Shown: positions 1 to 36,977 of the stretch, piece after piece
Position numbering within the stretch: position 1 is the first letter of the stretch
Layout: each line of letters starts with the position of its first letter
Sequence record: NZ_CP072340.1
DNA length: 64,000 nucleotides
Source of the DNA: a plasmid
Reading direction: 5' to 3' (one strand)
Notes under the pieces: model-generated
Seen by the model: only the letters and a program-made list of their open reading frames with translations
Database searches by the model: none
What the model was told of the DNA's origin: nothing
Position numbers and translations under genes: made by a program

Positions 1-1
1 G

Positions 2-430: not shown

Positions 431-487
431 CGGCTGAACGAAACTTTTATTCAAGAAAGCAAAAAAATAAGATAATAACAGCCGAAT

Positions 488-1192: not shown

Positions 1193-1224
1193 GCGCAACG
1201 GCAGGAACATAATACAATAAAGAT

Positions 1225-2097: not shown

Positions 2098-2942
2098 AAC
2101 GTATTATTTTAACAACGGCAGCACTCGCCCTTGCAGTGCTCACCGTAAGTGCAAAACCCAACAAAAAGGACGAAAACAAAGTTATCGACAAGCTCAAGTA
2201 CACCATTACCTATCGGACAAAGAGCGTACGCGACACTACAAAACTCGACCCTGCAGGTCGTTATAACTATGAAAACGAAGACATGCAGCTCGAAGTTGGC
2301 GAGAAGGTAAGCTACTTTTACAGTGCCACCTACCGCGCTTATATAGAGAATTTGCGGAAGTCTCTCGATGGAAACAATATTCAGATAGAAACTTCAAGTC
2401 CTGCGCGTGGCAACCTCTCGCTGGACTTCTATCGTGGCTACCCTGCAGGAAAGTCTACCTATTTGGACGAGGTGCTTAGCGAAAAATTCCGCATCACCGA
2501 GTCTTTAGAGCAACCCAAGTGGGACATTATAGCCGATAGCACAAAGCAAATTCTCAACTACGCCTGCCAGATGGCGCGCTGTAAGTTTAAAGGACGCACG
2601 TGGACAGCTTGGTTCACCACCGATATTCCATTGGACAACGGACCTTGGAAGCTGTGCGGATTGCCCGGATTGATACTTCGTGCCTACGATGCCAAGCAAC
2701 AATACATTTTCGATTGCGTGGGTATGAAACAGGCAAAGGAAGGCGAAAACATTACTTACAACTCCGATTTTGACAAGTATGCTGCTTCAACAATGAAGGA
2801 ATTTGTAGACTATCAGCGCAAGGCTGTACCCGAAGACATACTGGCAACGCAGGGAATAAAGATAGAAGTGCCCGAAGAAATGAAGGCTGAGATGATGAAG
2901 GCATTGGCAAAACCGCAGCCCAGTAACCCACTTGAACTGTAA
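2094..2942 (+). CDS. GLPGLI family protein, paralog
   Basis: Signal peptide MKRIILTTAALALAVLTVSA; WKLCGLPGLILRAYD motif; colinear similarity with 1225..2097. Confidence 0.7.
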   Translation: MKRIILTTAALALAVLTVSAKPNKKDENKVIDKLKYTITYRTKSVRDTTKLDPAGRYNYENEDMQLEVGEKVSYFYSATYRAYIENLRKSLDGNNIQIETSSPARGNLSLDFYRGYPAGKSTYLDEVLSEKFRITESLEQPKWDIIADSTKQILNYACQMARCKFKGRTWTAWFTTDIPLDNGPWKLCGLPGLILRAYDAKQQYIFDCVGMKQAKEGENITYNSDFDKYAASTMKEFVDYQRKAVPEDILATQGIKIEVPEEMKAEMMKALAKPQPSNPLEL

Positions 2943-2960
2943 CAAACCATACTTGCAGGC

Positions 2961-14727: not shown

Positions 14728-16320
14728 CTACATCTTCCACTTTGGTTTTGAGATAATAACTTTGCTCGTAATGTCATTGTTGTCGGATACATTCTGCTGA
14801 CTATTGTTCTTGGGAGATGTGGGCAAAGGTATGTTGTCTGTGTTTTTTGAGAATGAATTCTTATAAGAACGGGGTTCTGATATATCATCTACTGATTTAC
14901 TTTGCTGTATGGCACCATGCTGTGCCTCTTGCCCTATATCCTCTTTTTCCTCCTCCGGTGGAGCAAGGGTAAGTGCAATTCGCCTATCCAGTTCGGCTGC
15001 CTCGCCTTTGAGCGTGCGAAGCTCTTCTTCCTTTTTCCAAGAGCTGCCCGCAATGTTGGTGTAAACGTCTTTATTGGCTGCGACCTTTTCCATCTCCTTT
15101 TCGTGCGACTCTATTACCTTCGGGATACGCTCCAAGGCATTGATAAAGTTCTGGCAAGCAAGTTTCGGATCGGATGCCAGCTTACCGTTATTATAGGTAT
15201 AGTAGATACTCTCCTGCCCCTTCACAAAGAAACGATTTACAGAGCAATCAAACAAGTCCTTGGAAGTGCTCTCCGTCTTAACCATAATAGAAAAGCCATA
15301 AATCTCACCGATTTTGTTGTATTCCCCCTTGGTGCGTGCTTTCTCGTCTATTTCCTGCAGACGTGCAGCAATGGCCTTGATATCGGTGCTGTCTTCCACA
15401 CCTTTGATAGTCAGCTTATTGATAGGCACACCTTCCTCATCACGCTCCACACGCTTCTCAAAGAGAGCCAAGTCAGACTGTGCCTCCTTGACTTTGTCTG
15501 TATGGAAAGACACGGAACTCTCAATCTCTGCCAGCTTGCCCGTTGCGGCATCACGCTCACGGAGAAAGTTCTTGCGCTCTGATTCCAAGGTGGTAATCTT
15601 CTTATCCAATCTTGCTTTTTCCAAAAGGTCGGTATTGCCTGAAAGTACTGCTACATATTCTGAAAAGTTCATACCGCTGTCCTCGTCCATCGATCCCTCG
15701 TCAATGGTACGGCTCCCTAAAGTGTTCGTCTTTAACTGGTTGATGAAAAGCTGCTTGTTGTGCAGCAGGTTGAACTTGTAACTGTCCAACGAGCGTTCCA
15801 CGGCATAAATAATCACATCGACCTTGTTGTCGGCAAACTCCTTGGCAACAAGATTACCTTTACGGATGGCACGCCCGTTACGCTGCTCTAAGTCCGATGG
15901 TCGCCACGGCGTGTCAAGTTGATGGACCGCTACTGCCCGCTGCTGGGCATTCACACCTGTGCCCAACATGGACGTAGAACCGAAGATAATGCGAATATCA
16001 CCACGGTTCATCGCATCTACCATTGCCTTCTTTGCTTTCTCGTTCTTGCACTCCTGAATGAAGCGTATCTCATAAGATGGAATATGATAGTCTTCTACCA
16101 ACTTTCTCTTGATTTCCGAATAGATATTGAAGTCTCCACCAGGCTTGTAAGTACCCAAGTCTGAGAAAACAAACTGCGTTCCTTTCTGTGCATCGTACTT
16201 TTGGTAATAGTCATTGAGCATTTTGGCACAGTGACTTGCCTTGTTGTCGATATGATCTGAGTAAGCATTTTCATCAATCATGCGTAAATCAAGGCTCATC
16301 TTCCTCGCATAATCAGTCAT
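14728..16320 (-). CDS. SNF2-helicase C-terminal domain protein = 3' fragment of the split N6-methylase/helicase gene
   Basis: Helicase motifs GSTSMLGTGVNAQ...QRNGRAIRKGN; begins MTDYARK, the same residues that end the 5' fragment at 27.7 kb; in-frame stop 9 nt upstream of ATG. Confidence 0.8.
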   Translation of the reverse strand: MTDYARKMSLDLRMIDENAYSDHIDNKASHCAKMLNDYYQKYDAQKGTQFVFSDLGTYKPGGDFNIYSEIKRKLVEDYHIPSYEIRFIQECKNEKAKKAMVDAMNRGDIRIIFGSTSMLGTGVNAQQRAVAVHQLDTPWRPSDLEQRNGRAIRKGNLVAKEFADNKVDVIIYAVERSLDSYKFNLLHNKQLFINQLKTNTLGSRTIDEGSMDEDSGMNFSEYVAVLSGNTDLLEKARLDKKITTLESERKNFLRERDAATGKLAEIESSVSFHTDKVKEAQSDLALFEKRVERDEEGVPINKLTIKGVEDSTDIKAIAARLQEIDEKARTKGEYNKIGEIYGFSIMVKTESTSKDLFDCSVNRFFVKGQESIYYTYNNGKLASDPKLACQNFINALERIPKVIESHEKEMEKVAANKDVYTNIAGSSWKKEEELRTLKGEAAELDRRIALTLAPPEEEKEDIGQEAQHGAIQQSKSVDDISEPRSYKNSFSKNTDNIPLPTSPKNNSQQNVSDNNDITSKVIISKPKWKM

Positions 16321-16427: not shown

Positions 16428-16495
16428 GGCAGGAGTTCCGTTACCAAATCGTAACCCATCAGGGAAAAAGCAAAAAGGGGTTACGAATTGAATGT
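16428..16495. repeat. conserved left-end block with inverted repeat CGTAACCC..(19 nt)..GGGTTACG (candidate attL/integrase site)
   Basis: Near-identical to 33816-33885. Confidence 0.6.
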
Positions 16496-21595: not shown

Positions 21596-22021
21596 ATGCC
21601 TAAATTAGAAATAGCCAACAACAACCGCTACGGTCATCGTAGGATAGAAGAAGTGCCACGCTGGGACAGATGGGACACCCGTATGCCAGATGTGAAAGAC
21701 CAACTGCGAGCCATCGACCTGTACAACAAGTCGGGGGCAGTGAGCAAGTCCGATTTCGTTCGTGCCCGTATCCTTGGAGAGAGATTCAAGGTGATAATGG
21801 TGGATAAGTCCGCAGTTGAGTATTACCGCAAGCTCTCTGAACTCACAGCCCAAGTACATAAGATTGGCATAAACTATAATCAAGTCGTCCGCTTGATGCA
21901 CCTTTATACGGCAGAGAAAAGTGTAAAAGCTTTGTTGCAGGAACTTATCCAACTAACAAAAGAACTCACTACCTTCCAAGAGAAAGCAGTGAGTTTAACC
22001 ATTGACTATCGGGAGAGATAA
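21596..22021 (+). CDS. MobA-like relaxosome accessory protein
   Basis: Homolog of backbone mobA (59566..59985) and of 38578..39006; ORF-track start 21488 lies in conserved noncoding block. Confidence 0.7.
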   Translation: MPKLEIANNNRYGHRRIEEVPRWDRWDTRMPDVKDQLRAIDLYNKSGAVSKSDFVRARILGERFKVIMVDKSAVEYYRKLSELTAQVHKIGINYNQVVRLMHLYTAEKSVKALLQELIQLTKELTTFQEKAVSLTIDYRER

Positions 22022-22037
22022 GGAATGTGCGATGGAA

Positions 22038-22523
22038 TTATATTCCCCCAAGCATTTTTTGCAGCAGATTGCCCGATGTTCGTGTTATTTGGAAGTCTAT
22101 GGTTTGGTTTTCTACTGTTTTTATGTCGGCTGGCTTGAAACGACAAAGGGCTTCCTGACGCTCCAATGTGTCACGGACGGAAGAAAGGTCCTGTATCTGC
22201 CCTGCAAACGTTCCATAGGGAGATTGCAGATAAATCATTTGTCTGTTTACATTGTCGGGGCGTTTATTCTCGAACTTTAATAAGATGGTTATATCTGTGC
22301 TGTCCGCTGGTGTTGCGGTTGTTGCTCCGTGTACGGTAGCCGTTCCCGAATACACTTGTTTATAAGGCAGGAAATAGGCTACGGCTAACAGACAAAGCAA
22401 AACAGCTCCTATGGCAGTAATACCATAACGAACGAGAGATGAGGGTATCTGCCCCACGATGCTGCGTACTTTCTCGCTGCGGAGCTCAAAACTCCGTTCC
22501 TGTTTCTTTTCCTGGTTTTCCAT
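22038..22523 (-). CDS. short HlyD-family-like membrane protein (periplasmic adaptor N-terminus, 161 aa)
   Basis: Cytoplasmic N-term, one TM helix, then ...SGTATVHGA like HlyD/CvaA N-termini; 1-nt gap to upstream ABC gene. Confidence 0.4.
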   Translation of the reverse strand: MENQEKKQERSFELRSEKVRSIVGQIPSSLVRYGITAIGAVLLCLLAVAYFLPYKQVYSGTATVHGATTATPADSTDITILLKFENKRPDNVNRQMIYLQSPYGTFAGQIQDLSSVRDTLERQEALCRFKPADIKTVENQTIDFQITRTSGNLLQKMLGGI

Positions 22524-22524
22524 A

Positions 22525-24738
22525 TCAGTTACCCAATTCTAATTGATTCTTCACTAAGGCAAAATATTTACCACGTTTAGCAGTCAGATCCTCGTGTGTA
22601 CCTACCTCTACAATTTTACCTTCATCCAAAACTACAATTTGGTCGGCATCGCGAACAGTGGAAAGGCGGTGTGCCACTACTACAACTGTTTTTCCCTTGT
22701 AGAACTCCGAGAGGTTTTCTGTAATGGCTCGTTCATTGTTGGCATCGAGGGCATTGGTCGCTTCATCCAGAAAGACAAACATTGGATTCTTATAGACTAC
22801 CCTTGCTATCAAAATGCGTTGTCGTTGTCCCTGACTGATGCCCTGTCCGTCCTGTCCTATCATCGTGTTGTAAGCCAAAGGCAGGGCTTCGATGTAGTCA
22901 GCGATGTTTGCCACACGGGCAGCATGGCGGATACGTTCGATGTCGGGTTCATCATCCGATATGGCAATATTCCTCGCAATGGTATCGGAGAAGAGATACC
23001 CCTCCTGCATTACCGCACCGCATTGGCTTCGCCACCAGCCGAGATTATATTCATTCAGATTGGCACTGCCGACTTGAACGCTTCCTTTCAGAGGTTCATA
23101 GAACCCCAACAAGAGTTTAACGAGTGTGGTCTTTCCGCTTCCACTCGCCCCCACGATTGCGGTTACTTTGCCGTTAGGTATGGAGAGATTGATGTCTGAG
23201 AGAATATCTTTTGGGCTGTAGATGTCGTATTTGAAAGAGAGGTCTTTTATCTTGAGGGAATGTCCCTCAAGTGTTTCGTCAATGTAGGCATTCCGTGTTC
23301 TTTTCGCATTCTCCTCGTTAGTCTCTGTATGAATTTCGTTCATACGGTCAAGGCTGATGCTCACGTCTTGCCAAGAATAGATAAACTGAATGAGCTGTTC
23401 CACGGGGCTGTTGAGCTGTCCAATGATGTACTGCACTGCCAGCATCATACCAAGCGTCATATTGCCTTGTATGACAGAAGTTGCAGCAAAAACGGTAATC
23501 AAGATATTTTTTATCTCGTTGATGGTGATGCTTCCTGCCTGTTGTATTTGCTGAAGATTAAGACTTTGCAGATTGACCTTGAAAAGGTCGGCTTGCACGT
23601 CCTCCCATTCCCAACGCTTGCGCTGCTCACATCCCTGCAACTTGATTTCCTGCATACCACCTATGAGTTGGTAGGTAACGTTGCGGTTTCGCCCTGCCTG
23701 CTCGAAATATTTGTAGTCCAACTGCCTGCGCTTTTTGAGAAAAAGGATAATCCATCCGGCATAAAGCGATGTCCCCGAGAGGAATACAAGGAAGATGCCA
23801 AGATTATAGACTGCAAGGACGACACCGAAGACAAGGAAGGTGAAGAACGAGAATAGCAGGCTCAGACTGCTTGAGGTGAGGAACTGCTCCACACGTCGGT
23901 GGTCTTCAATACGTTGCAAGAGGTCGCCCATCAGTTTGGTGTCGAAGAACTTCATCGGTAGTTTCATCAATTTGATGAAGAAATCCGAGATGAGCGAGAT
24001 ATTGATACGTGTGGAGATGTGCAGGAGTATTTTGGAGCGGATAAAGTCGATGGCGGTACGGCTGAAAAGTAGCATCATTTCTGCCAAGAGCACTAACCAT
24101 ACAAAGCCTATATCCTTTCCTCCTATACCTGTATCAACGATGGCTTGAGTGAGGAAGGGGAAAATGAGTTGCAGGAGCGAGCCGAGCAACAGACCGAGAA
24201 TGAGTTGCGTAAAGAATCTCTTGTACTTTTTGAGATAGTTCCAAAGGAACTTCGCGCGGCTTTGAGTCGGTGCTGTTTCTGTATCGTTTTGAGCATAGAA
24301 CTGTTCTGTCGGTTCAAGAAGAAGGGCGACACCTTTCTCCTCACCGTTGGTCTTAGTACTTACCCAATGCTCGCAGAACTCCTCTTGGGTATAGGAAACA
24401 AGTCCTTTGCCAGGGTCGGCAACATATACGGTATATTTTCCTTTTTTGTGCTTTTTTATTTTATAGACAACAACAAAATGATTTTGATTCCAATGAACAA
24501 TGCAGGGCAAAGGAACTTCAAATGCAAGTGTATCAAAACTTAATCGACCTCCAACAGTCTTGAAACCGATAGTTTCTGCAGCCTTACTGATACCAAGCAA
24601 AGAAACTCCCTCTCGATTTAATGAACAAACTGTTCTAATTGAATCAATATTAAAATCGCGACCATAATGCTTAACTATCATTGCTAAGCAAGAAGGTCCA
24701 CAATCTTTTGCGTCACGTTGTCTAACTAAGGTGTACAT
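22525..24738 (-). CDS. peptidase-C39-domain ABC transporter (double-glycine peptide-processing exporter)
   Basis: C39 motif DCGPSCLAMIVKHYG; 6 TM region; Walker A GASGSGKTT, LSQGQRQRILIARVV, FVFLDEATNALD. Confidence 0.9.
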   Translation of the reverse strand: MYTLVRQRDAKDCGPSCLAMIVKHYGRDFNIDSIRTVCSLNREGVSLLGISKAAETIGFKTVGGRLSFDTLAFEVPLPCIVHWNQNHFVVVYKIKKHKKGKYTVYVADPGKGLVSYTQEEFCEHWVSTKTNGEEKGVALLLEPTEQFYAQNDTETAPTQSRAKFLWNYLKKYKRFFTQLILGLLLGSLLQLIFPFLTQAIVDTGIGGKDIGFVWLVLLAEMMLLFSRTAIDFIRSKILLHISTRINISLISDFFIKLMKLPMKFFDTKLMGDLLQRIEDHRRVEQFLTSSSLSLLFSFFTFLVFGVVLAVYNLGIFLVFLSGTSLYAGWIILFLKKRRQLDYKYFEQAGRNRNVTYQLIGGMQEIKLQGCEQRKRWEWEDVQADLFKVNLQSLNLQQIQQAGSITINEIKNILITVFAATSVIQGNMTLGMMLAVQYIIGQLNSPVEQLIQFIYSWQDVSISLDRMNEIHTETNEENAKRTRNAYIDETLEGHSLKIKDLSFKYDIYSPKDILSDINLSIPNGKVTAIVGASGSGKTTLVKLLLGFYEPLKGSVQVGSANLNEYNLGWWRSQCGAVMQEGYLFSDTIARNIAISDDEPDIERIRHAARVANIADYIEALPLAYNTMIGQDGQGISQGQRQRILIARVVYKNPMFVFLDEATNALDANNERAITENLSEFYKGKTVVVVAHRLSTVRDADQIVVLDEGKIVEVGTHEDLTAKRGKYFALVKNQLELGN

Positions 24739-24804
24739 TTATGATATATAAAACTATACTAAAAATACTATACTAAAGTAAATATTAAATTTGCAAAAAT
24801 ATTA

Positions 24805-27141
24805 TCACTGCAAATTCAATCGTTTCTGATTGCTTTCATTGGTGTTCAATCTTCTAAATGTATCCTTAAATCCATTGAATGTATATTTAATGGTCAGTAA
24901 AAGAAAGCGACTATCGAAATCAGGAGTTGTTTGTACTTTGATATTATCTATGAATACATTTGTTTTTGATATAGATTTATGTAATAAATCGTTACCTCTC
25001 AAGATAATTTGTAAACGATTATCTTTGAAGAAATTTTGCCGTATCCAAAAAGATAAACCATACTTAGGTGATTCCAATACTCCCAAGAAACCATTTTTTG
25101 AAGAGTAAGATAAATCTATAGACGCCATCATTTGCTTAGTAATGTCAAATTGATTGACCAAGGTAAATGCAATATTTGGATTTCTAGGTGCATAAGTATC
25201 TAAGTATTTAATTTTTGTTGGAATATAACGAAATGAAGCATTATAAGCAAATCTATATATACCGAATTTATCTGAATAACTTGCATTAAACAACCATGTA
25301 TTGTAATCTACATTGACGGGAGAATTCAATAGAGCTCCATTTAATTCAGAATTTTCGGTGAACTTCCACAAAACAGCATTAGCGTCATGTATGTATCTTC
25401 CCTGTAAGACAAATTTATTCTTCCATACCATAGATAAGGAATAAATGTATCTATCATTAGATTTAAGAGATGAATTACCTTTTTCATATAAATAAGGATT
25501 TATATAATGCAAAAGAGGGGAAATATCCCTAAACATTGGTCGTGAATTCTGAGTAATAATACTTCCAATGAATAGCAAATCGGGATTTATCTGCCATTGG
25601 GCTGTTATACGAGGAAAGAGTTTAAAGTATGTATCAGTAATACTATTTGTTTTATTTTGCTCATATTCAGAATGAAAAATGCTTCCTCTAACCCCTGCGG
25701 TGATAAAGAGTTTATTCCATTTTTGATTTATAGTTGCAAATAAACTGAGTTCATCATCTTGAAGATTACTCGTTATATTATAGAATGGAGTCGTAGTATT
25801 CTCAAAAATGTAATTTGAATAGCCTTTGTTCAGAATAGAATTTCCTTGAAAGCCCATATTTAGAGAGAAACCCTTTTTCGAGTTGTAGTCGTACTCTATC
25901 TTTGTATTAAATGCGTTATAGTCATTTTTACCATTTATCCAAGAACGGTTTTTACTGTTTGATACTAAATCTATCTCTGATTTTGTTTTAGCGTAGAAAT
26001 AACCGCCAGAAACAGATAGTTGTTGCTTATCTGTCATTGTATAATTTACCAACAAATCGGCATTGGCAGAAATATTACGACTTCTTTCATCTTGATGAGT
26101 GTTGGAATATAGTGTATTCAGACCATATTCATAGTTATACTCATCTCCTTGGGTATTCGCTTTCTTATTGGAGATATTTATATCACCCTGAAATGTTATA
26201 TTAAATTTTTGATTGGGTCTGTAACTGAAACTTTCGACAATATGGTGAGCAGGCTTGGAAAGAATTTCATTATTGTAAGAGATGGAAGACCGTTCCGTTT
26301 TCCCTTTAGGGCTTAATACATCGTATTGATTGGTACCTGTGTTATCTTCATTGAGGTATGAAAAATTATAAGACAATAAATTATCCCATTTCTTTTTTGA
26401 TAAAGAAATTCTCAATACATCCTCTTCTGTATACCGCCGTCCGAACAAAGAATTATGTTCCACCTGAGCAGAAAAGTAATCTGTTAATTGTTGGTTTGTT
26501 GTAATAGAAATAATACAACCATATTGAGCCGAATATTTAGCTGGTGGATAGTAATTAACATTTACCGTTTTTATTTGTTCAGGACGGAGCGTACCGATTC
26601 TATCGTATGATTTTTGTTCTACTCCATTCAATATATACAAAGGTGTGCCTCCTGATATAGGTACAACTCTTCCACCGGTCGCCAACATTCCTGGAAGAAA
26701 AGCAAGAACATCTGCAACTTCGGGTAATTTTTTTAACTCTGATTTTGAGACGTCTATTTCAAATGTTCCTTCTGAAACTTTATAGACTGCTCTTTTTCCT
26801 TTAACTATAACCTCTTGCAACGTGTTGGAATTCGGTTCTAACTGGATAACAGTTGGAAGAGGAATAGAGACTCGTGCTTGTTTATATCCCATAAATCTGA
26901 CAGCAATAAATTTACCATCAGTTCCTTCTTTGCTTATATTGAACACCCCTTTTGAATCAGTTGTTGTACTTTTTAAAATTTCTCCTTCTTCTGTAATTAA
27001 TAGTACGGTGGCATAGGGTAAAGGTTCTTGTACCTCATCAACTACGGTAGCTGATAACATCAATGTATCTTGAGGTACTATTGCTGCTTGAGATTGAAAA
27101 CTGAAAACAGAAATTAAAATTAAAATTAAAACACGAAACAT
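24805..27141 (-). CDS. outer-membrane beta-barrel protein (TonB-dependent-receptor-like, N-terminal carboxypeptidase-regulatory-like domain)
   Basis: Signal peptide MFRVLILILISVFSFQSQAA; LSATVVDEVQEPLPYATVLLITEEGE; C-terminal aromatic-rich barrel strands. Confidence 0.7.
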   Translation of the reverse strand: MFRVLILILISVFSFQSQAAIVPQDTLMLSATVVDEVQEPLPYATVLLITEEGEILKSTTTDSKGVFNISKEGTDGKFIAVRFMGYKQARVSIPLPTVIQLEPNSNTLQEVIVKGKRAVYKVSEGTFEIDVSKSELKKLPEVADVLAFLPGMLATGGRVVPISGGTPLYILNGVEQKSYDRIGTLRPEQIKTVNVNYYPPAKYSAQYGCIISITTNQQLTDYFSAQVEHNSLFGRRYTEEDVLRISLSKKKWDNLLSYNFSYLNEDNTGTNQYDVLSPKGKTERSSISYNNEILSKPAHHIVESFSYRPNQKFNITFQGDINISNKKANTQGDEYNYEYGLNTLYSNTHQDERSRNISANADLLVNYTMTDKQQLSVSGGYFYAKTKSEIDLVSNSKNRSWINGKNDYNAFNTKIEYDYNSKKGFSLNMGFQGNSILNKGYSNYIFENTTTPFYNITSNLQDDELSLFATINQKWNKLFITAGVRGSIFHSEYEQNKTNSITDTYFKLFPRITAQWQINPDLLFIGSIITQNSRPMFRDISPLLHYINPYLYEKGNSSLKSNDRYIYSLSMVWKNKFVLQGRYIHDANAVLWKFTENSELNGALLNSPVNVDYNTWLFNASYSDKFGIYRFAYNASFRYIPTKIKYLDTYAPRNPNIAFTLVNQFDITKQMMASIDLSYSSKNGFLGVLESPKYGLSFWIRQNFFKDNRLQIILRGNDLLHKSISKTNVFIDNIKVQTTPDFDSRFLLLTIKYTFNGFKDTFRRLNTNESNQKRLNLQ

Positions 27142-27231
27142 TACAACAAGAAAGTTATAGAGATATAAAGTTGTAAATAAAAATAAAATGTCTGACTATG
27201 AACGAAAGAGCATAGTCAGACACAGAAACTC

Positions 27232-27408
27232 TTAAGGCTTTGTTGTTACTCTGTCAATGATGACAGTCCCATCATCCTTAATCGTTGTTGTAATGGTGGT
27301 TGTTGAACCATCTGCATTGATAATGGTTTTAGTTGCAGTTACATCACCGCCACCATTGATAAAACCCATTTCGTCTTTTGAAAAGACTTCTAAAGCTAAT
27401 GCTTTCAT
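27232..27408 (-). CDS. 58-aa double-glycine-leader peptide precursor (bacteriocin/microcin-like), not in ORF track
   Basis: Translated by hand: MKALALEVFSKDEMGFINGGGDVTATKTIINADGSTTTITTTIKDDGTVIIDRVTTKP; leader LxxxxSKDEMxxIxGG; 90 nt upstream of OM-barrel gene, same strand as C39-ABC. Confidence 0.6.
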   Translation of the reverse strand: MKALALEVFSKDEMGFINGGGDVTATKTIINADGSTTTITTTIKDDGTVIIDRVTTKP

Positions 27409-27649
27409 AACTAAATAGAATAAAGTTTATACTTGGCTCGGTATTCTCCGAACCGTTAATTAAAATTTGGATGTCAGAGTTTCGCACGATGTGCATATTA
27501 ACAGACATTCAATTGCAATATTACGAAAAGAAAACGAGAAAAACAAATTTTTCGCCACGTTTTTTGCGATTTCCATTATTTTGTGTCGTTTTTCATAATG
27601 AAATGACTATCTTTGCAACTATAAATTAAGTGTTCATTGAAGCATTGCA

Positions 27650-27770
27650 AAATAAAGAAAGGGAAAGAAACTCGCTCGTTTCCATCTCGTAACCCATTTA
27701 CCCTTTATTCATTCTTATTTTATTGATTATCTGAAAGATACAATATTCTTGAATCTTTTACGGGCGTAAT
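27650..27770. repeat. conserved right-end block of element 2 (near-identical to 48692-48800)
   Basis: aaagggaaagaaactcgctcgtttccatctcgtaacccatttaccctttattcattcttattttattgattatctgaaagatacaatattcttgaatctttt. Confidence 0.7.
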
Positions 27771-30700
27771 CCGTTGCGATGAGCATTTTTGCCCTTCCCT
27801 CGCTCTCACTCAGAGGTGCTCGTCCCAAGATTGTGGCATCTCCACTCTTGGCAAACTCCATCAACTTGCCGATAAAAACCTCCTGCTCGGGCGTGGGCGG
27901 TATGTTATGCAGTATCTCGTTCTTCTCGGGGCGGTCGATACCGATGTCCTTGGCTGTGCGAAAGTCGCAAATCTCCGCATAGAACGAGGCAAGCTCCGGC
28001 ACTTTGATAAAGGTGCGGAACCGCTCTTTCTGAATGATGTCGTTTGTGATGGAGAACTCATAGTCAGTTGATTTCTTGGCAAAGACTGCTGCCCAAGCAT
28101 CAAAACTGTTGATACCCTGTTTTTCTAATGCCTGCGGACGGAGATACTTGAACAGAAGATACAACTCCGTCAGGCTATTGGAAATGGTCGTTCCCGAAAG
28201 GAAAGTGGCTCCCAAATCCTTGCCGGACCTCTCCTGTATGGTACGAATAGCAAAGAGCATGTTTAAGGCACGCTGTGAACCATCAGGATTACCCAAGCCC
28301 GACACACGGTCGTGGCGGGTATTGAACATCAGGTTCTTGAATTGATGGCTTTCATCTACAAAGAGGTGGTCGATACCCATCATCTTGAAGTCTACAGCAT
28401 CGTCCTTTCTTTCGGCGATGCTGTCCTGTATGTTCTGCAACTTGGCTTCAAGCGTCTGCTTGCGTTTTTCCAGTCCTTTGAGCATGCCACGGGAGATGTC
28501 TCTTCCTTGTTGCCGCAACACTTCGAGATTTTCTTCCACGGAGTCCAGTTCCTTTTGCATAATCGCCTCCTGTATCTCGAAGGCCTGCGGTATCATGCCG
28601 AACTGTTCATGCGTAAGTATTATGCAGTCCCAGTCGTTGTTCTTGATGTCGTTGAAAATGCGTTGTCTGTTCTGCTTGTTGAAATCATTCTTGCCCGGAT
28701 ATAAGATCCTCGCATTGGGATAAGCCTTTCTAAAGGTGTCGGCAATGTCAAAGACGTTTGCCTTCAGTCCGATAATCATTGGCTTGTTTGCCAGTCCCAA
28801 TCGCTTCATCTCGTAGGCTGCCGTACACATGATGAGTGTCTTGCCCGCCCCCACCTCGTGATCACAGATGCCTCCTCCATTGGTCTTCAGCATCCATACG
28901 GCATCCTTCTGGCTCTTGTAGAGGTCGGCAATGCCCAACCGTTTGAGGTCAAGGTCGGGAAAAGTCTGATGTGTGCCGTCAAAGTTCGGTCGCACAAAAC
29001 AGTTGAAAAGGCGGTTGTACCTGTCGGAGAGTTGTTGTTTGAAGGTATCGGGTGTGCGTCCGAGCCAATCGACAAAGCCCTGTCTGATTTCCTCAATCTT
29101 GGCATTCGCCATCTGGATGGCATGTCCGTCCCTTACTTTGATGGTCTTGGTCTCTCCCGTAACCTTGTCCGTCACTTCCTTGCTCTTGTTGATGTCGGGA
29201 ATGGTATTGTGCAGGGCATGCTTTAAGAGATTGATACCGTCATAGCGGCGGAACTCACCCTGTACGGCATACTTGTGCCAGATATTGGCATTCTTATGGT
29301 CACATACAATGCTGTACTCGTCCATGTTGGAATGGTAGGATACACCAATATCCGTCCCGAAAAACTCCGAGGCAAACCTGCCATAGACTTTGGCAGGTAT
29401 CCAGCGTTCACCGAGATTAAAGTCAAGGTCTGCAAATGGAATGGGTGTTGGCGTGGCTGCACGCAAAGCGGCAAGGCTCTGTTTGGCTTCCTCATGGTCT
29501 GGATGGTCCAAGAGCCACGACTCGATACGCTCCGCCTTTTCTATTACATTGCCCGAAATGAACTTGTCCGCCACTTCGTAGGCATTCTCTTCGGGATTGT
29601 AATAGATGCGACCTTCCAAGGAAGAAATGATGTCGCTTTCCTCCATATCAGGTAAAAGCGAACTCATGTAGTCAAGTTCCACCGCGCCGTACTTGTTGAG
29701 CGATGCACCCAGTGCCTCCATCGGGTCTGCGGCAACGGTCAGTTCCGTGGTGGAAAATGCCGTAGGATGGTCAAAGATGTCCGCCTTGATGTACCTGCCG
29801 TTCTCGGAGCGTTCCAAGAACAGCATTTCCACGCCTGTAGCATCCATCTTGATGATGTCGGTGTTAGCCTTTTGGTTAAAGTAGCCCCAGCGTGCAACAT
29901 AATCATCATACAGGTGGTTGAGTCTGCTGCGGTCCTCCTTGTCTTCTGCATGGTTCTCTGCCTCGTAGTCATAGAGACGATGATAGCACTCCCGTATCTC
30001 GATATAGCTTTTTAGTCGGGAAAGCTGCGCATACGGCAAGTCCATCGGATTAAAGGTCGGATGTCGCTTTAAGTCAGAAAGAAACCCCACCTGCCCTTTC
30101 TGCACGACAATGGAGCCGTCTCTTAAGTGGGAGTCCGGCGATGAGAGAAAGGGACGGGGTGAGGAATCAAACTCCTTTTTCACCTCCGCTATCGGTTGTG
30201 GTTTTCGCTCTTCGGCTTCATTCATGAAGTCAAAGAGAGATGGCTCACGATATGAGGGGGAGATGATCTTCTTATTGCCCTTTCCTCTGGTTTTACGCCC
30301 TGGAGTGACTGTAGGTTGTTTTTCGCTCTCCTTTCCTGCTTTGTTTTCCGGTTGCTTTTGAGCTGTCTGCACCTGCGATTTTGGAGCTTCTTTAATCTCG
30401 CTGTTCACGCGCGTTACTTCCTGCGTCCAGAGATTGTATTCCTCCGGAGCGAACAGTGAAGGCTGCTCCGTTTCCTGTCGCTCGTCCATGCCGTTCATCA
30501 CCGGATGATGGTCATCGTCGAAATAGACCATCTGTCCGTTCATCTCCCGTGGAGACTCCACATCGGTACGGATTTCCTTCACATCCTGCTCATACTGACG
30601 GTGAAGAGTCAATGTAGGCACGCCTTCAGGAGCAGGCTCATAGGAAATGTGGTCGATAGCCTGCACGATTTGCCTATTAGCCTTTTCCCTGACTTGCTCC

Positions 30701-32460
30701 CCAGCCTTTTCTACTTGAACTTCCTCCTTGTCCTCTTCCGTGGAGAGCTTCTCCTCCATTGGCTGAGCCAGAACTGTCGGCTCGGCTTTTTTCTTGATTT
30801 CCTCAATAATCGGCTCCTTGGTGTATTGTCCTTGGACAATCTCCTCCAGTTCTGCAATCTCGTGCAGTTTCTTGGGGCTAAAATATAAGTCTCGCTCAAT
30901 GCCTAACCCATGTATCTTGACTTCCTCCATTTCGTCAAGCGACATATTGCCCAGTTCCCAACCATAGCCCATCGTGACAGCACCGAAACCGATGCGGGTC
31001 TTCGGGTCGTACTCCAAGAGGTAGGCCGTATATGCCCCCATCGGGAAGAAATAGCGTGCGTAGGCTATTTTATCGCCAATGAGTTCCTTCTCCGTGCTGT
31101 ATAGTTTGGGCAATTGTTTCCTGATGCTGTCGGGCATGAGATTATAGGCGTTATCCGCCTCCTTGTCCGTTTTTGGCTCCTCGTTGGGCAAATCAACCGT
31201 TATACCCAACTTCTGCAGTTGTTTCTCCACTTCTTTCTGTCGTTCCTCTTCCGTCATCGGTATGCCAGTTTCATAGAGCTTTCGGTCAAAGCGTTGCTCA
31301 AATTCCAAGGAGAGTTGTGTTCTGATACTCTCCGCCATATCATCAATGCTGCCATCGAAGCGATACTCCCATGCAGGTTTGCCGTATGGGTCCCTGCCCA
31401 TCGTGCGTTCCGTGGCAATGGTGCGGTGGGCTATGTCCTTCCATTCACCATCAAAGAGCGAGTTGTGCTTGAATACGACAGAGGAACCTTCGGCTATGGG
31501 AACAGACACAGAAGCTACGAACTGCTGTTCGATGCCCTCGCCGATGGTCTTGCCCGACTGCTTTTGCAGGACGATGAGGTCGCTGCCGACTTCCGTTCCT
31601 GCATTCTCAGAGAACATACCCGACGGCAGGCGGAGAGCGGAGATAAGCCGGCTGTTCTGCATCAGATAACGGCGGATGGCTTCGTTCTTCGGGCTGTCCA
31701 GCACACCCTGCGAGGTGATGAATGCCATCAGCCCACCTTCTTTAATGCAGTCCAGCCCCTTTACAAAGAAGTAATTGTGGATGGCTCGTGTGGATTCGCG
31801 TTTGAGAATGTCCTTGCCCTTGCTGTACTCCCGGTCATAGACCATGAAATCACCAAAGGGAATGTTACTTGTTATAAGGTCGTACTTGTCCTTGTCCTCC
31901 AACTCTCCGATGGCTTCAAAGGGGGCTTGGCGGACTATGATGTTGCCTTGTCCATAAGGATGAATGGCTTGTGAGATACGGGCAGTGAGCAGGTCTTTCT
32001 CCATTGCATCGACCATACCGGCCTTTTTCGCAAAGGTCTCAGTAAAAGCTCCCATGCCTGCCGACGGATCCAAGCATCGACGTATGGGAACATCTACTGA
32101 AGAGAGTGCGTCTGCAATGGCATTGACGATACGGGTGTCGGTATAAAAGGACGTGAGCACGCTTGCCTTGATGCTCTCCCAATAACGTTTGGCGGTATTG
32201 GCATCGACGGCATCACGGTAAATCATCTGCTTGAGCCTTTGGGTAGGCTCGAAGAGGTGTTGCTCCGACTTGCTCCAATAACGAATGTCGTCGGGGTTGT
32301 CCGTGCGGTTAAGCACGCATTTCAAGCCACCGAAGCCCTGATAGTCGCGCAATATGCCTTTCTCTGCTTCGGTGGCTTCACGGCGTTCTTTCTCCAAGCG
32401 CAGCACGACACGGATGGCTTCCGTGTTGGCCGCCAAGACTGCTTTCTTATTGTATGCCAT
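27727..32460 (-). CDS. N6-adenine DNA methyltransferase fused to SNF2-family helicase N-terminal half (5' fragment of split gene; last ~10 codons and stop supplied by element-2 end)
   Basis: MTase motif [10 protein letters not shown]; helicase Walker [17 protein letters not shown] box [11 protein letters not shown]; ends ..[16 protein letters not shown] inside the element end repeat. Confidence 0.85.
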
Positions 32461-32553: not shown

Positions 32554-33735
32554 TTATCTCTCTCGTTGTTTTCCTTTCCTATTCTCAAACTCAAATGCAG
32601 TGGTACAGTCGTCCTGCAATACCAGTCGGGCATTGAACTTCTTACCAGCCTTGCTGGTCAAGCCATTGAGGACGGGCGTCCGACCTGTGGTTATCAAATC
32701 TCGGATATTGCCCTCTGTAAGAAGCGTTCCACAGACCTCACGAAATATATGAAAGTCGCAGCCCTCGTGTCTGCATTTGGCGACTTTGGTATAAATGCCC
32801 ACACTTTCGTTACCACATTTAGGGCAGTGGTAGGTGGGATAAGACTTCTGCACCTGTGGAGCAAGGGCAAGGAGTTCCTCGCAGATAGTGCCGACGTATG
32901 AGTTGATGCCTTGCGCGAACTTCTCCGCCGGCATTTGTCTCGCCTCGATAGCGGCAAGAGCCAGTTCCCAACTGCCAGTCATCTCCGCATTGGCAATCTT
33001 CTTGTCCTTGACAATCTCATAGACTGACAAGCCTTTTTCGGTAGGTATGATAGCTTTCTTATTCCTACGGATATAGTCACGGAGAATAAGCGTTTCGATA
33101 ATGTTGGCACGGGTTGCAGGTGTGCCGATACCGCACTCTGCCATCGCCTTCTTGCTTTCAGCATCTTCGACATCTTTCCCAGCGTTCTCCATTGCAGAGA
33201 GCAGAGTTGCTTCTGTGTAGAGTGGTTTCGGCTTGGTCTTATGCTCGGTAATCTCTGCATTGAGAAGTGACAGGACTTCACCTTCCGTTAAGCTGGGCAG
33301 GGCGGATAAGGTCTGTTCCTCGTTTTCCTTTCCATTTTCATTTTGAGTGTCAGCGCCTTGCTGCACGTCTTTCCAACCCAAAGAGATTTGTCGGCACGCC
33401 TTCCAAGTAAAGGTATTGGTGCCGTCCGTGAACTTCACCTGCATACGTTCTTCCTCTGAGTCGGGAGAGAAAGCCTCTAAAAAGCGAGTTACTATCATTT
33501 GATAGATGGTCGCCTCGTCCACCGACAAGCCCGAAGGGGTTTCTCCTGTGGGGATAATAGCGTGGTGGTCGGTAACTTTTGCATTGTCCACAGAATGGCG
33601 GTTAAGCGGATTGGATAGCGCCTTGTCTATCTTGCGAAGCAGGACGGGTACTTCCTCAAAGACATCCTCACTGATGTATCGGCTGCCTGTACGGGGATAG
33701 TTTATAGAATAAAGACAATGAAAGAAGAAAGGACA
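32554..33735 (-). pseudogene. topB: DNA topoisomerase III, 3' fragment (from active-site YPR motif to zinc-ribbon C-terminus)
   Basis: DHHAIIPTGE, CPKCGNES zinc ribbon; hand translation upstream of the ORF-track start gives ..LYSINYPRTGSRYISEDVFEEV, open to ~33867. Confidence 0.75.
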
Positions 33736-33815
33736 AACAAAAACGAAATCTGCTGAATAATAGCAATTTATGCACTTTATTGCTTTTTATGGAATGGCAA
33801 GGATAGGCGAAAAAC

Positions 33816-33885
33816 GGCAGGAGTTCCGTTACCAAATCGTAACCCAACAGGGAAAAAGCAAAAATGGGTTACGAATCGAAGCTAA
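33816..33885. repeat. conserved left-end block with CGTAACCC..GGGTTACG inverted repeat
   Basis: Near-identical to 16428-16495. Confidence 0.6.
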
Positions 33886-35219
33886 ACAACTGTGTCATAG
33901 GTTTTTATTCCTCATCTTTCATTTTTTTGCATCGCTCTGGAGCACTTGAATGTATGTACCTTTGCATGCAAAGGAAATTTAGAAAAAACGACAGAGAAAT
34001 GAAAGAAAACAAACTGAAAGTGTCGTTCTTCGTTCAAGCAGGACGAGCGGACAAAAAAGGCATGGTGCCGCTTATCGGACGGATAGAACTAGGCAGGAGG
34101 CATTCCGCCTTTTCCGCCAAAAAGAAAATCCCATTGTCTCTTTGGGACAGCAGGAAGCAACGTCTTCTCGGCAAGAGTGCCATCGCAAATTCAATCAACC
34201 GGTATTTGAATGAATGCACCGCACTCGTTCACGCTCGTTATCGGGAACTCTGCGAAAGGGGAGAGACATTCTCGGCTGCGGACGTGCGCAATGCCTATCA
34301 GGGACAGCTTTGTCAAAATGCAATGCTTTTAGAGTGTTATGCTGAATACCTCAGACAGATTGAGGAAAGAGTGGGCATAGACCGGGCTATGAAAACTTTG
34401 GAGCTGCGCACCTATCAGCAAACGCTTCTTCGGGAGTATGTGCGGAGGAAATACAAGTTAAGTGATATTCCGCTTATGGAGTTGGATATTTCCTTTATAG
34501 AAGGCTATGAATACTTTCTGACAATAGACAGGAAACTGAAGCGTGGCAGCATATGCAGTGCCTTGTCTGCCTTAAAGGCGGTCGTGAACAAGGCAGTCAA
34601 AAATGGCATGACAGACATGTATCCGTTCATTAGCTACAGTTACGAGAAACTGAAAGGAACACCGAGAAACATCACGCAGGACGACCTGCAAAAGATTATC
34701 GATCTGCCCATCAGATGGGAGAAATACCGTGTCGTCCGTGATTTGTTCGTGTTCTCCTGCTTCAGCGGTCTTGCAATTTCGGACATACGCAATCTCAAAG
34801 AGGAAAACATCATCCTTGAGGAAGGCAGGCTATGTATCAAAAACAAGCGTGTCAAGACCAAGACTCCTTTTCGCGTAGTGGTTCTCCCTCCTGCCAAGAC
34901 CATTATGGAAAGATACAGGGGCATACGTGCAGGATATGTGTTTGACGTTCCCACAAGAGACGTGGTTTACAATGCAATGCACTACATACAGAGAAGCATC
35001 GGTATGGAAGCTCCGCTGACCTTCCACATGGCCCGCCATACCTTTGCATCGGTCATCACCCTGTCGGCGGGTGTCCCGATAGAAACCGTAAGCGGTATGC
35101 TGGGGCATACCAATTTGAGAACGACACAAGTGTATGCAGCGGTCAATTCCGAAAGAATCAGACAGGATATGCAGAAGATTCAACTGCAGATAGAACACAC
35201 ATTCACCTTAAAATTATAG
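33864..35219 (+). CDS. tyrosine integrase, first of pair (true start probably MKENKLKV at ~33999)
   Basis: HMARHTFASV...GHTNLRTTQVYAAV; ~75% identical to 16488..17831. Confidence 0.85.
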   Translation: MGYESKLNNCVIGFYSSSFIFLHRSGALECMYLCMQRKFRKNDREMKENKLKVSFFVQAGRADKKGMVPLIGRIELGRRHSAFSAKKKIPLSLWDSRKQRLLGKSAIANSINRYLNECTALVHARYRELCERGETFSAADVRNAYQGQLCQNAMLLECYAEYLRQIEERVGIDRAMKTLELRTYQQTLLREYVRRKYKLSDIPLMELDISFIEGYEYFLTIDRKLKRGSICSALSALKAVVNKAVKNGMTDMYPFISYSYEKLKGTPRNITQDDLQKIIDLPIRWEKYRVVRDLFVFSCFSGLAISDIRNLKEENIILEEGRLCIKNKRVKTKTPFRVVVLPPAKTIMERYRGIRAGYVFDVPTRDVVYNAMHYIQRSIGMEAPLTFHMARHTFASVITLSAGVPIETVSGMLGHTNLRTTQVYAAVNSERIRQDMQKIQLQIEHTFTLKL

Positions 35220-35222
35220 CTT

Positions 35223-36485
35223 ATGGCACGCAGCACATTCAGGACATTGTTCTACATTAACCGTTCCAAACTGAAGAAGAACGGCAAATGCCCGATAATG
35301 GGGCGAATCACCATAGACGGGCAGCAGGTACAATACAGCATGGGGCTGGAAATCAATCCTGACAATTGGGACGCAAAGCATGGCAGATGCAAAGGCGACC
35401 TTGACGAAATGAAGAGCATCAACCGCATACTGACAGAAAAGGAAGGACAGATGCAAGCCAAATACAATGAGCTGGTCTGGCAAAAGGGGTACGTGAGCGC
35501 AGAACTGCTCAAAAGCAGGCTGATGGAGGATTCACAAAGCAATGGCATGCTCATAGAAGAGGCAGACCGTTTTATAGAGGAAAAACGCCCTTGTGCAGGA
35601 GTGACCATTGCACAATCCACTTTTCGCAACTACATCTATGACAGGCAACTCATAGTGTCGTTTCTGCAGGATAAATTCGGGGTGTCGGATATTTGCTATT
35701 CACGGTTGGATTATGGCTTTATAGAGGAATTGGACTTCTACCTGAAAAGCAAGCGCGGACTGTCATCCGCCACCATTCAGATGACGGTTGTCTTCCTGAG
35801 AAAGCTCATAGGCATCGGGCAACGGAAAAAATACATCCGCCGAGACCCGTTTGTGGATTTCAAGGCGGAAAAGCCACACGGCACGAGAAGGTATCTTACA
35901 ACGGAGGAGCTCAACCGCATTTTGCAAACGCCCATTATCAACAAGCAGTTCGAGCGGGCAAGGCAACTCTTCATTTTCTGTGCCTTCACGGGATTGGCTC
36001 GTGTGGATATGCTGCGACTGACCCCAAGGCATATCCACCATTATGATGACGGAACTTGTGAGATACGCATCAAAAGGCAAAAGACGGACGTGGAAGCCAT
36101 CATTCCACTTCTGCCCATCGCAAAGGAGATACTTGATATTCATATAAAAGGGAAGCAACCCGATGAGTTGATATTTCCTACATTGAACGTCAGCAAGGCC
36201 TCTTTCGCCTGTATAAACATTGGTCAGATATGCCAGATAGAGAATGGCTTGACTTTTCACATGGCTCGCCACACTTTCGCCACGACCATCTGCCTTTCCA
36301 ACGGTATGGCAATGGAGACGCTCAGTAAGATGCTCGGACACAGCGACATTGGTACGACACAGATTTATGGAAAAATTACCGACCTGAAAATCAGAGAGGA
36401 TATGAGCCGATTGCAGGAGCGTGAAAACAAGGCTTTTTCTGATTACACCGAATCCATAGAACGACAAGTGGCATCAACATTTTAG
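35223..36485 (+). CDS. tyrosine integrase, second of pair
   Basis: HMARHTFATT...GHSDIGTTQIYGKI; homolog of 17836..19104. Confidence 0.85.
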   Translation: MARSTFRTLFYINRSKLKKNGKCPIMGRITIDGQQVQYSMGLEINPDNWDAKHGRCKGDLDEMKSINRILTEKEGQMQAKYNELVWQKGYVSAELLKSRLMEDSQSNGMLIEEADRFIEEKRPCAGVTIAQSTFRNYIYDRQLIVSFLQDKFGVSDICYSRLDYGFIEELDFYLKSKRGLSSATIQMTVVFLRKLIGIGQRKKYIRRDPFVDFKAEKPHGTRRYLTTEELNRILQTPIINKQFERARQLFIFCAFTGLARVDMLRLTPRHIHHYDDGTCEIRIKRQKTDVEAIIPLLPIAKEILDIHIKGKQPDELIFPTLNVSKASFACINIGQICQIENGLTFHMARHTFATTICLSNGMAMETLSKMLGHSDIGTTQIYGKITDLKIREDMSRLQERENKAFSDYTESIERQVASTF

Positions 36486-36506
36486 AAATCAACAAATACC
36501 TACAAA

Positions 36507-36977
36507 ATGAATACAGATAATAATACAAAGGAACTTTCCTACTTTCAGTTGAAATTAAGAAGTTATATGAGTGAACATCACCCCGAAAGGTTACAAGATA
36601 CGGAGTTTATCACAGCACGGGCAGATATGGCTCTGACCACTTACTGCGATGCTGTGGCGCAGGGCTTCACGCACCCCGAGGCGGAGAGCATGGCAAGCGA
36701 GGTTTTGTACCAGGGCTTGCATCTCTCCAAGTACGATACGCTTGTATCTGTGTTGGAAAACGAATTTGAAAGGGAACTGCCTGCTCCGCTCCCAGAGAAG
36801 CTCGCACCCATATTGTTATCGAATGAGGCTGTTCAAGCCACATTCGACAAGTTCGGTTTGACGGACATATTTGCCGCAAGCGGACAATACGACCGCCTTT
36901 ACACCGAACTAACAGGCACGATAGTGCTGCTCATTGAGAGCAATAATCTGCCGACAGTCGGTCAGACAGACAGATAA
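36507..36977 (+). CDS. conserved hypothetical protein (paralog of 19157..19624)
   Basis: High identity to element-2 copy. Confidence 0.6.
   Translation: MNTDNNTKELSYFQLKLRSYMSEHHPERLQDTEFITARADMALTTYCDAVAQGFTHPEAESMASEVLYQGLHLSKYDTLVSVLENEFERELPAPLPEKLAPILLSNEAVQATFDKFGLTDIFAASGQYDRLYTELTGTIVLLIESNNLPTVGQTDR

Follow-up and report, generated by a model that had tools for sequence, protein, structure and literature searches.

The window analysed here is a 64,000-nucleotide stretch of a plasmid (record NZ_CP072340.1), and this report concerns a run of four genes on its minus strand which begins with the gene of a small double-glycine-leader peptide (27232..27408). This gene is followed by those of a 778-residue outer-membrane protein with a predicted barrel (24805..27141), a 737-residue peptidase-containing ATP-binding cassette transporter (PCAT; 22525..24738) and a 161-residue membrane fusion protein (MFP) of reduced size (mini-MFP; 22038..22523), with intergenic gaps of 90, 66 and 1 nt. 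The original prediction, made from the letters of the window, had proposed a 58-residue double-glycine open reading frame (ORF) running from 27408 to 27232; the ORF is present at this place and encodes MKALALEVFSKDEMGFINGG|GDVTATKTIINADGSTTTITTTIKDDGTVIIDRVTTKP. It had also been called unannotated, which is true of the ORF track only: the exact sequence is held by NCBI (EFM02427.1 and others) under the label 'MULTISPECIES: hypothetical protein [Bacteroidota]' and occurs on at least 1000 contigs. The window cassette is present in identical form in several genera, and a full-text search found no published paper carrying strings of the peptide sequence. Considered as a whole, the locus is a maturase-free, Cys-free and mobile form of a widespread Bacteroidales module made of a PCAT and a barrel, and it is not categorically new.

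The first 20 residues of the peptide, MKALALEVFSKDEMGFINGG (27349..27408, minus strand), were recognised as a double-glycine leader by reading of the sequence and by a regular expression. Hydrophobic residues occupy positions -4, -7, -12 and -15, Glu is at -8 and the Gly-Gly pair is at -2/-1 (F-12, E-8, M-7, I-4, G-2, G-1). A length between 15 and 30 residues, a GG end and the hydrophobic/acidic pattern, which define such leaders, are all found in the window peptide. The regular expression asked for a hydrophobic residue at each of -4, -7 and -12, for a polar/acidic pair preceding -7 and for the GG; of the 334 ORFs with 30-130 aa that the 64-kb window contains, the peptide ORF alone matched. 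As the chance expectation obtained from block-shuffled sequence is 0.08 matches per 64 kb, the leader motif is above chance. In the NCBIfam search, the peptide did not match the bacteriocin_sig model TIGR01847, and its top match was the lichenicidin A2 family, over the leader region, with an E-value of 3.5e-4 and 20.9 bits, below the cutoff of 32.95. The remaining 38 residues, GDVTATKTIINADGSTTTITTTIKDDGTVIIDRVTTKP (27232..27348 with the stop codon, minus strand), form an anionic core of 3935 Da with a pI of 4.7 and a grand average of hydropathy (GRAVY) of -0.16, in which Thr and Ser together make up 34% of the residues and Cys is absent.

The peptide ORF is under purifying selection, with dN/dS values of 0.11-0.29 across comparisons, the value against the relative L019 being 0.29 (L numbers designate the loci compared). 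Between the window peptide and L085, dS is about 1.9 and dN 0.23, which gives a dN/dS of 0.12. In the core, the comparison with the B. fluxus-type homologue (L002) showed 24 changed sites of 27.5 synonymous ones and 11 of 80.5 non-synonymous ones; dN against this homologue is 0.15 in the core and 0.46 in the leader, the core being the better kept of the two. Saturated synonymous sites in a protein that is itself kept show the peptide ORF to be a real gene. A word-based search returned 43 peptide relatives at 70% identity or more, and tracing of the barrel subfamily together with a metagenome scan added relatives down to ~40% identity. Residues N31, G34, D46 and G47 are invariant in the peptide alignment (n = 11), and all relatives retain the frame, the GG site and a predicted pattern of strand - N-x-DG - strand - DG - strand. 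The peptides of L087-L090 have a longer tail rich in Pro and Thr, and those of L097-L099 a leader quite different from that of the window. No Cys occurs in 8 of 8 family members, all of which are slightly anionic, and the contrast that had been drawn between a Cys-free core and the bacteroidetocins holds for the window core and its relatives. Rfam returned zero RNA families in the peptide-gene interval, and the constraint lies at the level of the protein rather than of an RNA. Selection, the family alignment and the specificity of the regular expression together support the claim of a genuine, conserved double-glycine precursor.

NCBI labels the B. fluxus homologue as a VCBS-repeat protein on a marginal score (16.8 bits for a cutoff of 15.5); the window peptide does not carry this label, and no weight is placed on it. 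Frameshifted metagenomic versions of the peptide (P0089-P0096), each on 1-3 contigs, read ...SMQMVQQPSLQQRLR... soon after the leader and may be assembly errors or pseudogenes.

Wherever the flanking sequence of a relative is long enough (L019, L001-4/L096, L085, L087, L088, L093/94, L097/99 and L091), the gene order peptide-barrel-PCAT is kept, i.e. the small ORF is retained at all these homologous loci of the C39-ABC/barrel pair; the records of L089 and L090 reach the peptide and the barrel only. The mini-MFP or a shortened remnant of it follows the PCAT wherever the record extends far enough. The same order is also found in chromosomal, non-mobile settings, among them L002/L096, where BipA and S15 genes, along with those of a two-component system, flank the unit. 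Identities to the window of the core, the barrel and the PCAT are 95%, 92% and 93% in L019, 61%, 64% and 89% in L085, 81%, 42% and 59% in L002/L096, 39%, 54% and 85% in L087, and 37%, 53% and 83% in L088. The whole peptide is ~81% identical in L093/L094 (barrel 82%, PCAT 87% over residues 1-514 of L094, L093 ending before the PCAT), 91% in L091 (barrel 99%, PCAT 99% over the first 156 aa, with an insertion sequence between peptide and barrel) and ~52% in L097/L099 (PCAT 58%, barrel not detected or, for L099, <25%). A strict co-divergence of peptide and barrel, suggested by the core/barrel values of L085 (61/64%) and L087 (39/54%), is ruled out by L099, where a clearly related core precedes a barrel that is <25% identical. 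The gene order is thus invariant and strict co-divergence is not. Additionally, L085 (2952-13651) and L087 (1-10875) hold two successive pairs of small ORF and barrel before a single PCAT/mini-MFP, and in L085 both small ORFs have leaders of the Gly-Gly type.

Several further features were seen at these loci. The product of the first small ORF of L085, MKHSKMNLTTIVPPEDVLLEELSDVKAG|SAFRICLKGCCSGK..., is rich in Cys and has AG at its cleavage site, and a third barrel, with no evident peptide partner, lies 3' of the mini-MFP in L085 and is split into two ORFs in L087. The insertion sequence of L091 (4277-5260, DDE_Tnp_1 transposase of 327 aa) separates peptide and barrel in a copy that is otherwise 98-99% identical. 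In L001-L004 (9697-9870 and 7517-9619), a second, unrelated double-glycine peptide, MNTTELEKLSENEMAQIKGG|EGHWEMINGQWAWVETYDLGDEDYENT, Trp-rich and acidic, is encoded just upstream of the homologue, and in L002 it passes TIGR01847 with 18.7 for a cutoff of 15.7. The same loci hold a divergent histidine kinase and an OmpR-type response regulator beside the peptide genes, and their mini-MFP is shortened to 68 aa, the anchor only.

The PCAT (minus strand) matches Pfam Peptidase_C39, ABC_membrane and ABC_tran above the cutoffs. Read directly from the translation, the catalytic set Q7/C13/H87/D108 is intact and the motifs of the nucleotide-binding domain are present (GASGSGKTT, ISQGQRQR and FLDEAT). 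Alignments of the protein to PCAT1 (4RY2, E 4.5e-105) and to ComA (8HF4) span its whole length, and in NCBIfam it matches NHLP and bacteriocin ABC models under their equivalog cutoffs. By its sequence, the 737-residue protein is a full-length PCAT with all the features of that family, in agreement with the C39-peptidase ABC exporter that had been proposed two genes downstream of the peptide.

The 161-residue protein encoded after the PCAT gave no family match in Pfam and NCBIfam, HlyD models included, and a PDB sequence search with its profile gave no significant match; fold comparison placed both this protein and the barrel where PDB sequence searches did not. It is composed of a cytoplasmic ELRSEKVRSIVGQIP helix, a transmembrane helix at residues 28-51 and a six-stranded beta-barrel at residues 53-152, and belongs to a family of 467 clusters at 50% identity, mostly of ~155-168 aa. 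The first ~65 residues, with an ELRSEKVRxIVGQIP motif, the transmembrane helix and a PY motif, are common to Pfam HlyD_3 proteins of 225-315 aa and to a 445-aa HlyD_3 protein found beside another PCAT. The short and long MFP families align end to end in profile-profile comparison with 99.9% probability, the short form being devoid of ~70 central residues in comparison with relatives of 227 aa. The structure predicted with AlphaFold2 (AF2) contains zero coiled coil, and 161 residues are too few for a lipoyl domain or an alpha-hairpin. Of the parts of an HlyD/MFP protein, the anchor and the beta-barrel domain are present while the lipoyl domain and the alpha-hairpin are missing. The protein is an MFP of which only the membrane anchor and the beta-barrel domain remain, and the short HlyD-like adaptor placed after the ABC gene in the original prediction proves to be a minimal MFP by profile-profile comparison and by fold. 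Without the TolC-docking alpha-hairpin the mini-MFP cannot reach a TolC-type channel; therefore, the locus does not encode a canonical one-step type I secretion system, and it has a protein with a predicted TonB-dependent-transporter fold instead of TolC. The identity of the periplasmic domain of the mini-MFP follows that of the PCAT, with a Spearman coefficient of 0.83 over 20 loci. In the searched literature we found no experimental studies of the mini-MFP or of the TonB-dependent-transporter-like barrel that accompanies it.

In L003/L004, a second PCAT (739 aa) is encoded together with the full-length 445-aa HlyD_3 protein, which has a long helical region (1-3092). As these genomes also hold this conventional pair of PCAT and full-length MFP, the mini-MFP and the barrel constitute a distinct system.

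The 778-residue outer-membrane protein (minus strand) matches CarbopepD_reg_2 and OMP_b-brl_3 (PF14905). Its AF2 model, built on an alignment of 43 sequences from database hits, has a predicted local distance difference test (pLDDT) score of 82.5 and presents a signal peptide, a beta-sandwich N-terminal extension (NTE, CarboxypepD_reg-like) at residues 28-100, a poorly modelled linker with LQEVIVKG, a short plug-like domain at residues 121-215 and ~22 strands at residues 222-755. The LQEVIVKG that follows the NTE is TonB-box-like, and L-x-EVVV is kept in the consensus of the barrel family. In fold comparison, the predicted model has the fold of a TonB-dependent transporter/importer. A PDB sequence search with the barrel gave no significant match and the window barrel itself does not reach the Pfam Plug model; many relatives carry Pfam Plug and TonB_dep_Rec along with PF14905, and their source names are those of iron or TonB(-dependent) receptors. 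A literature search on PF14905 returned only an unrelated paper.

A pattern scan found a Bacteroides-type promoter-like element, TTTG-N20-TAATATTG (27516..27547, minus strand), a consensus match only, which ends 107 nt upstream of the peptide ATG; the Bacteroides promoter consensus is TTTG at -33 and TAnnTTTG at -7. A sigma-70 promoter scan gave sites no more often than chance. Between the peptide and barrel genes lies a terminator- or attenuator-like hairpin of 13 bp with a U-run (27175..27223, minus strand; -22.2 kcal/mol, z = -5.9), and hairpins of unrelated sequence occur at the same position in L019, L002, L085 and L087. The terminator scan of the window was at chance level, and this hairpin was missed by the automatic scan because its loop exceeds 8 nt. 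A read-through terminator after a precursor gene would yield more precursor than transporter transcript. Another terminator-like hairpin, with a 15-bp stem and a T-rich tail, a consensus match only, is found 3' of the mini-MFP stop codon (21963..21995, minus strand).

The operon is held by an element of ~11.2 kb bounded by two 21-nt imperfect direct repeats (family D9, 86% identity, spacing 11,238 nt), the left one just upstream of the first integrase gene (16439..16459, plus strand) and the right one 30 nt from an interrupted methylase/helicase ORF (27677..27697, plus strand). The other genes between the repeats encode two tyrosine integrases, DUF1896, two HTH_17, DUF3408 and MobC_2 proteins. 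They serve integration or mobilisation, and no maturase gene, as a cluster for a ribosomally synthesised and post-translationally modified peptide (RiPP) would have, was found between the repeats. An N6-methylase/SNF2 helicase gene is split by the element into pieces at 27727-32460 and 14728-16320, with the Helicase_C piece on the far side, and the element appears to be inserted into this gene of a larger conjugative element. The module had been described as horizontally mobile cargo, and it does lie inside a small integrative mobilisable element of oral and gut Bacteroidales, with flanking repeats.

A scan for the mini-MFP, with one genome per species, returned 80 loci, in hosts which include Prevotella, Hoylesella, Porphyromonas, Tannerella and Bacteroides ihuae. 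Almost everywhere a PCAT, 68-95% identical to that of the window, is encoded directly upstream. Among the upstream proteins tested, PF14905 was present in 29/39 and TonB_dep_Rec in 7; among further neighbours, radical SAM was present in 19/35 and SPASM in 5. Other maturase-type neighbours are a lanthipeptide dehydratase (LanB), YcaO and a glycosyltransferase (GT2), and the peptides of these sibling loci are mostly Cys-rich and of the double-glycine type. Over 20 loci, pairs of PCATs are on average 80% identical, pairs of periplasmic domains of the mini-MFP 46% and pairs of barrels 24%. In about 90 related loci taken together, the PCAT/mini-MFP pair is kept and the genes upstream of it vary, and the module thus has a conserved core and an exchangeable cargo cassette of peptide, maturase and barrel. 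Clusters with a PCAT and an outer-membrane protein (OMP) were described in a survey of Bacteroidales RiPPs, 'yet no MFP was identified', and its authors, Fernandez-Cantos et al., raised the question whether the MFP is missing or undetected (PMC10352776). The mini-MFP is probably the missing MFP of these PCAT + OMP clusters. In metagenome-assembled genomes labelled Lachnospiraceae, Acetatifactor, Eggerthellaceae, Selenomonas, Clostridia or Bacillota, seven loci (L027, L028, L030, L040, L043, L045 and L060) have PCATs 85-91% identical to the Prevotella PCAT; these labels most likely reflect a mis-binned mobile element, rather than a cross-phylum transfer.

With great confidence, we consider the window peptide to be a substrate of the PCAT. 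Our judgement is evenly divided on the view that the locus, as a self-contained mobile cassette, produces a 38-residue peptide and secretes it unmodified, which would proceed as follows. The precursor would be transcribed from its own promoter, and the downstream hairpin would probably pass only part of the transcripts to the export genes. By analogy with the family, the C39 domain of the PCAT would recognise the 20-residue leader and cut after Gly20, and the ABC domains would carry the 3.9-kDa core through the inner membrane. As the mini-MFP without a hairpin rules out canonical one-step type I secretion, the peptide would most likely be released at or into the periplasm. It would then cross the outer membrane via the barrel encoded right after it, in a TonB-dependent second step like that proposed for Oar and PopC. 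Outside, the anionic, Thr/Ile-rich, beta-type peptide might act on neighbouring Bacteroidales in the manner of an unmodified class II bacteriocin or microcin; this is the weakest step, and we rate an antibacterial activity at slightly below an even chance.

Concerning the outer membrane, the barrel between the peptide and its exporter had been taken for a dedicated exit. The barrel is there and the order is kept, and such an exit is one of two coherent readings for a protein of importer-type fold; to us, the barrel is equally likely to be the peptide exporter or not. Export is favoured by the lack of any other exit, no TolC-like gene being found at the locus, and by the barrels of the same architecture that accompany every peptide class of the PCAT/mini-MFP pair, which argues for a general role in peptide handling. 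A precedent exists in Oar, a TonB-dependent transporter with a CarboxypepD_reg NTE that acts in PopC secretion (PMC6434023). Several points, however, weigh against export of a toxic peptide by the barrel. The model and the relatives of the barrel keep the plug-like domain and the TonB-box-like motif, which together with the fold favour import or a receptor. To our knowledge, all characterised TonB-dependent transporters besides Oar are importers. The identity of the barrel does not co-vary with that of the mini-MFP or of the PCAT (Spearman -0.11 and 0.00 over 20 loci, a weak test because barrel identities are saturated near 20-24%), and therefore nothing points to a docking of the barrel with either of them. 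The core is anionic and hydrophilic, unlike typical membrane-active bacteriocins, and the four-gene unit contains no evident immunity gene. We would propose only tentatively a TolC-independent two-step pathway of Bacteroidales, in which the PCAT and the hairpin-less mini-MFP would deliver to the periplasm and a cassette-exchanged TonB-dependent-transporter-like barrel would export.

The second reading of the barrel, which we regard as rather unlikely, makes it the cognate TonB-dependent receptor/importer of the secreted peptide, which would exit by another route and serve as a scavenger or a periplasm-delivered signal, not a toxin. The Plug and TonB_dep_Rec domains and the receptor names of the barrel relatives are consistent with it, as is the fact that every peptide gene adjoins its own barrel and that two such pairs can share a single PCAT. 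In the same way, the barrel is part of the variable cargo cassette and not of the conserved PCAT/MFP core, and a core kept better than its leader is expected of a specific binding partner; the Cys-rich radical-SAM peptides of sibling loci could chelate metals. HasA/HasR, with the gene order hasR-hasA-hasD-hasE, and the methanobactin receptor MbnT offer analogies. In the HasA/HasR/HasDE and MbnA/MbnT systems, the gene of a small secreted protein or peptide adjoins those of its own TonB-dependent receptor and of an ABC/MFP exporter. These systems differ from the window locus by an exit through a TolC-type channel or a MATE exporter and by a known ligand, whereas in the window peptide two Asp-rich turns are the only evident features that might bind a ligand. 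Moreover, a receptor would leave the peptide without an outer-membrane exit, given the lack of a TolC-like gene and of a hairpin in the mini-MFP, and genes for an inner-membrane importer, a binding protein or TonB/ExbBD are missing from the cassette. The re-import of lanthipeptide, YcaO, radical-SAM and unmodified peptides alike is unlikely, and the related peptide of L099 with its barrel <25% identical would be odd for a tight ligand-receptor pair.

Secretion of the peptide as a toxin has also to be weighed against its use as a cell-cell signal (pheromone), exported by the PCAT and sensed by a histidine kinase, which we hold to be improbable. The B. fluxus-type loci, in which a divergent histidine kinase and an OmpR-type regulator stand directly upstream of two double-glycine peptide genes, point in this direction, and a hydrophilic anionic core with no membrane-active character and a four-gene unit without an immunity gene would suit a signal. 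The streptococcal peptides CSP and BlpC, exported by ComAB and BlpAB, are the analogy. However, the window element, L085, L087 and L099 lack the two-component system, which hence does not belong to the conserved unit, and a pheromone would be of no benefit to a mobile element entering a new host without a sensor.

There is little likelihood that enzymes encoded elsewhere in the host modify the peptide as a RiPP precursor, e.g. by Thr glycosylation or dehydration. Maturases do stand beside the peptide in most sibling loci, Thr and Ser account for 34% of the core, and there is similarity to a lanthipeptide-precursor family and TIGR04149, all of it weak and below cutoff; these matches, however, lie mainly over the leader. 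No maturase is found between the flanking repeats of the window, nor beside the peptide in L019, L085, L087, L088 and L002, and the peptide family members have zero Cys. The identical cassette occurs in several genera and so cannot depend on host-specific enzymes. That the small ORF is non-functional and the conserved feature an RNA or a regulatory leader of the barrel gene, as the strong hairpin directly 3' of it might suggest, has a negligible probability in view of saturated synonymous sites in a kept protein, of relatives down to ~40% identity that retain the frame, the GG site and both DG turns, and of the empty Rfam result.

Among published systems, the clusters BGC6-9 (Fernandez-Cantos et al. 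2023, PMC10352776) are alike in having a double-glycine precursor, a PCAT and an adjoining outer-membrane protein in genomes of the Prevotella/Porphyromonas type, and the 80 mini-MFP loci include radical-SAM, YcaO and LanB clusters of such a kind. The window locus differs from them in being maturase-free with a Cys-free core, and the 161-aa gene product after its PCAT is identified as a hairpin-less MFP. The bacteroidetocins (class IIf; PMC6671954, PMC8546649) are likewise unmodified double-glycine peptides of Bacteroidales, of similar size and PCAT-dependent. They contain, however, at least 2 Cys in a mature peptide of 35-50 aa and form disulfides (PMC6671954), while the window family has no Cys and so falls outside this class; their leader is described as 15 aa long (PMC12219008) versus 20 aa in the window family, and no sequence relationship with the window peptide was found. 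The class II microcin/colicin V system (CvaB, CvaA, TolC) shares with the locus the double-glycine leader, the PCAT, a partner of the MFP family and, in a Gram-negative cell, a small peptide that is anionic or neutral and bears no modification. It is unlike the window locus, which has no TolC-family channel, an MFP without lipoyl domain and alpha-hairpin, and a barrel with a predicted TonB-dependent-transporter fold. Finally, Oar/PopC of Myxococcus xanthus (PMC6434023) resembles the module by the TonB-dependent-transporter fold, the CarboxypepD_reg N-terminal extension and a proposed two-step secretion via a periplasmic intermediate. PopC, on the other hand, is a 50-kDa protease secreted without a PCAT, and Oar matches Plug and TonB_dep_Rec whereas the window barrel matches only PF14905; the link to secretion is made here by analogy.

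The exit of small peptides from Bacteroidales cells is an acknowledged gap, and Coyne et al. could not decide between secretion of the bacteroidetocins through the outer membrane and their release when cells lyse (PMC6671954). If true, the two-step pathway would explain how bacteroidetocin-like peptides and RiPPs leave the cell, and would be a second, far more widespread case of the TonB-dependent-transporter fold in export. Two parts of the window module are unusual: the mini-MFP, and the barrel resembling a TonB-dependent transporter that is found with each peptide gene. With a single unmodified peptide, a barrel, a PCAT and a mini-MFP, the four-gene cassette is the simplest natural form of the PCAT/barrel machinery, and it moves between genera. 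These two properties make it tractable for deciding between export and recapture by the barrel, for the role of a hairpin-less MFP and for the effect of the peptide on neighbouring oral and gut Bacteroidales.

Outside the ~11.2-kb element, the window holds a second set of two integrases and DUF1896 at 33864-36977, beside a truncated topoisomerase gene (32554-33591) that spans only positions 208-409 of the Topoisom_bac profile. This arrangement suggests that the region 32554-36977 is another nested insertion of the same element type.

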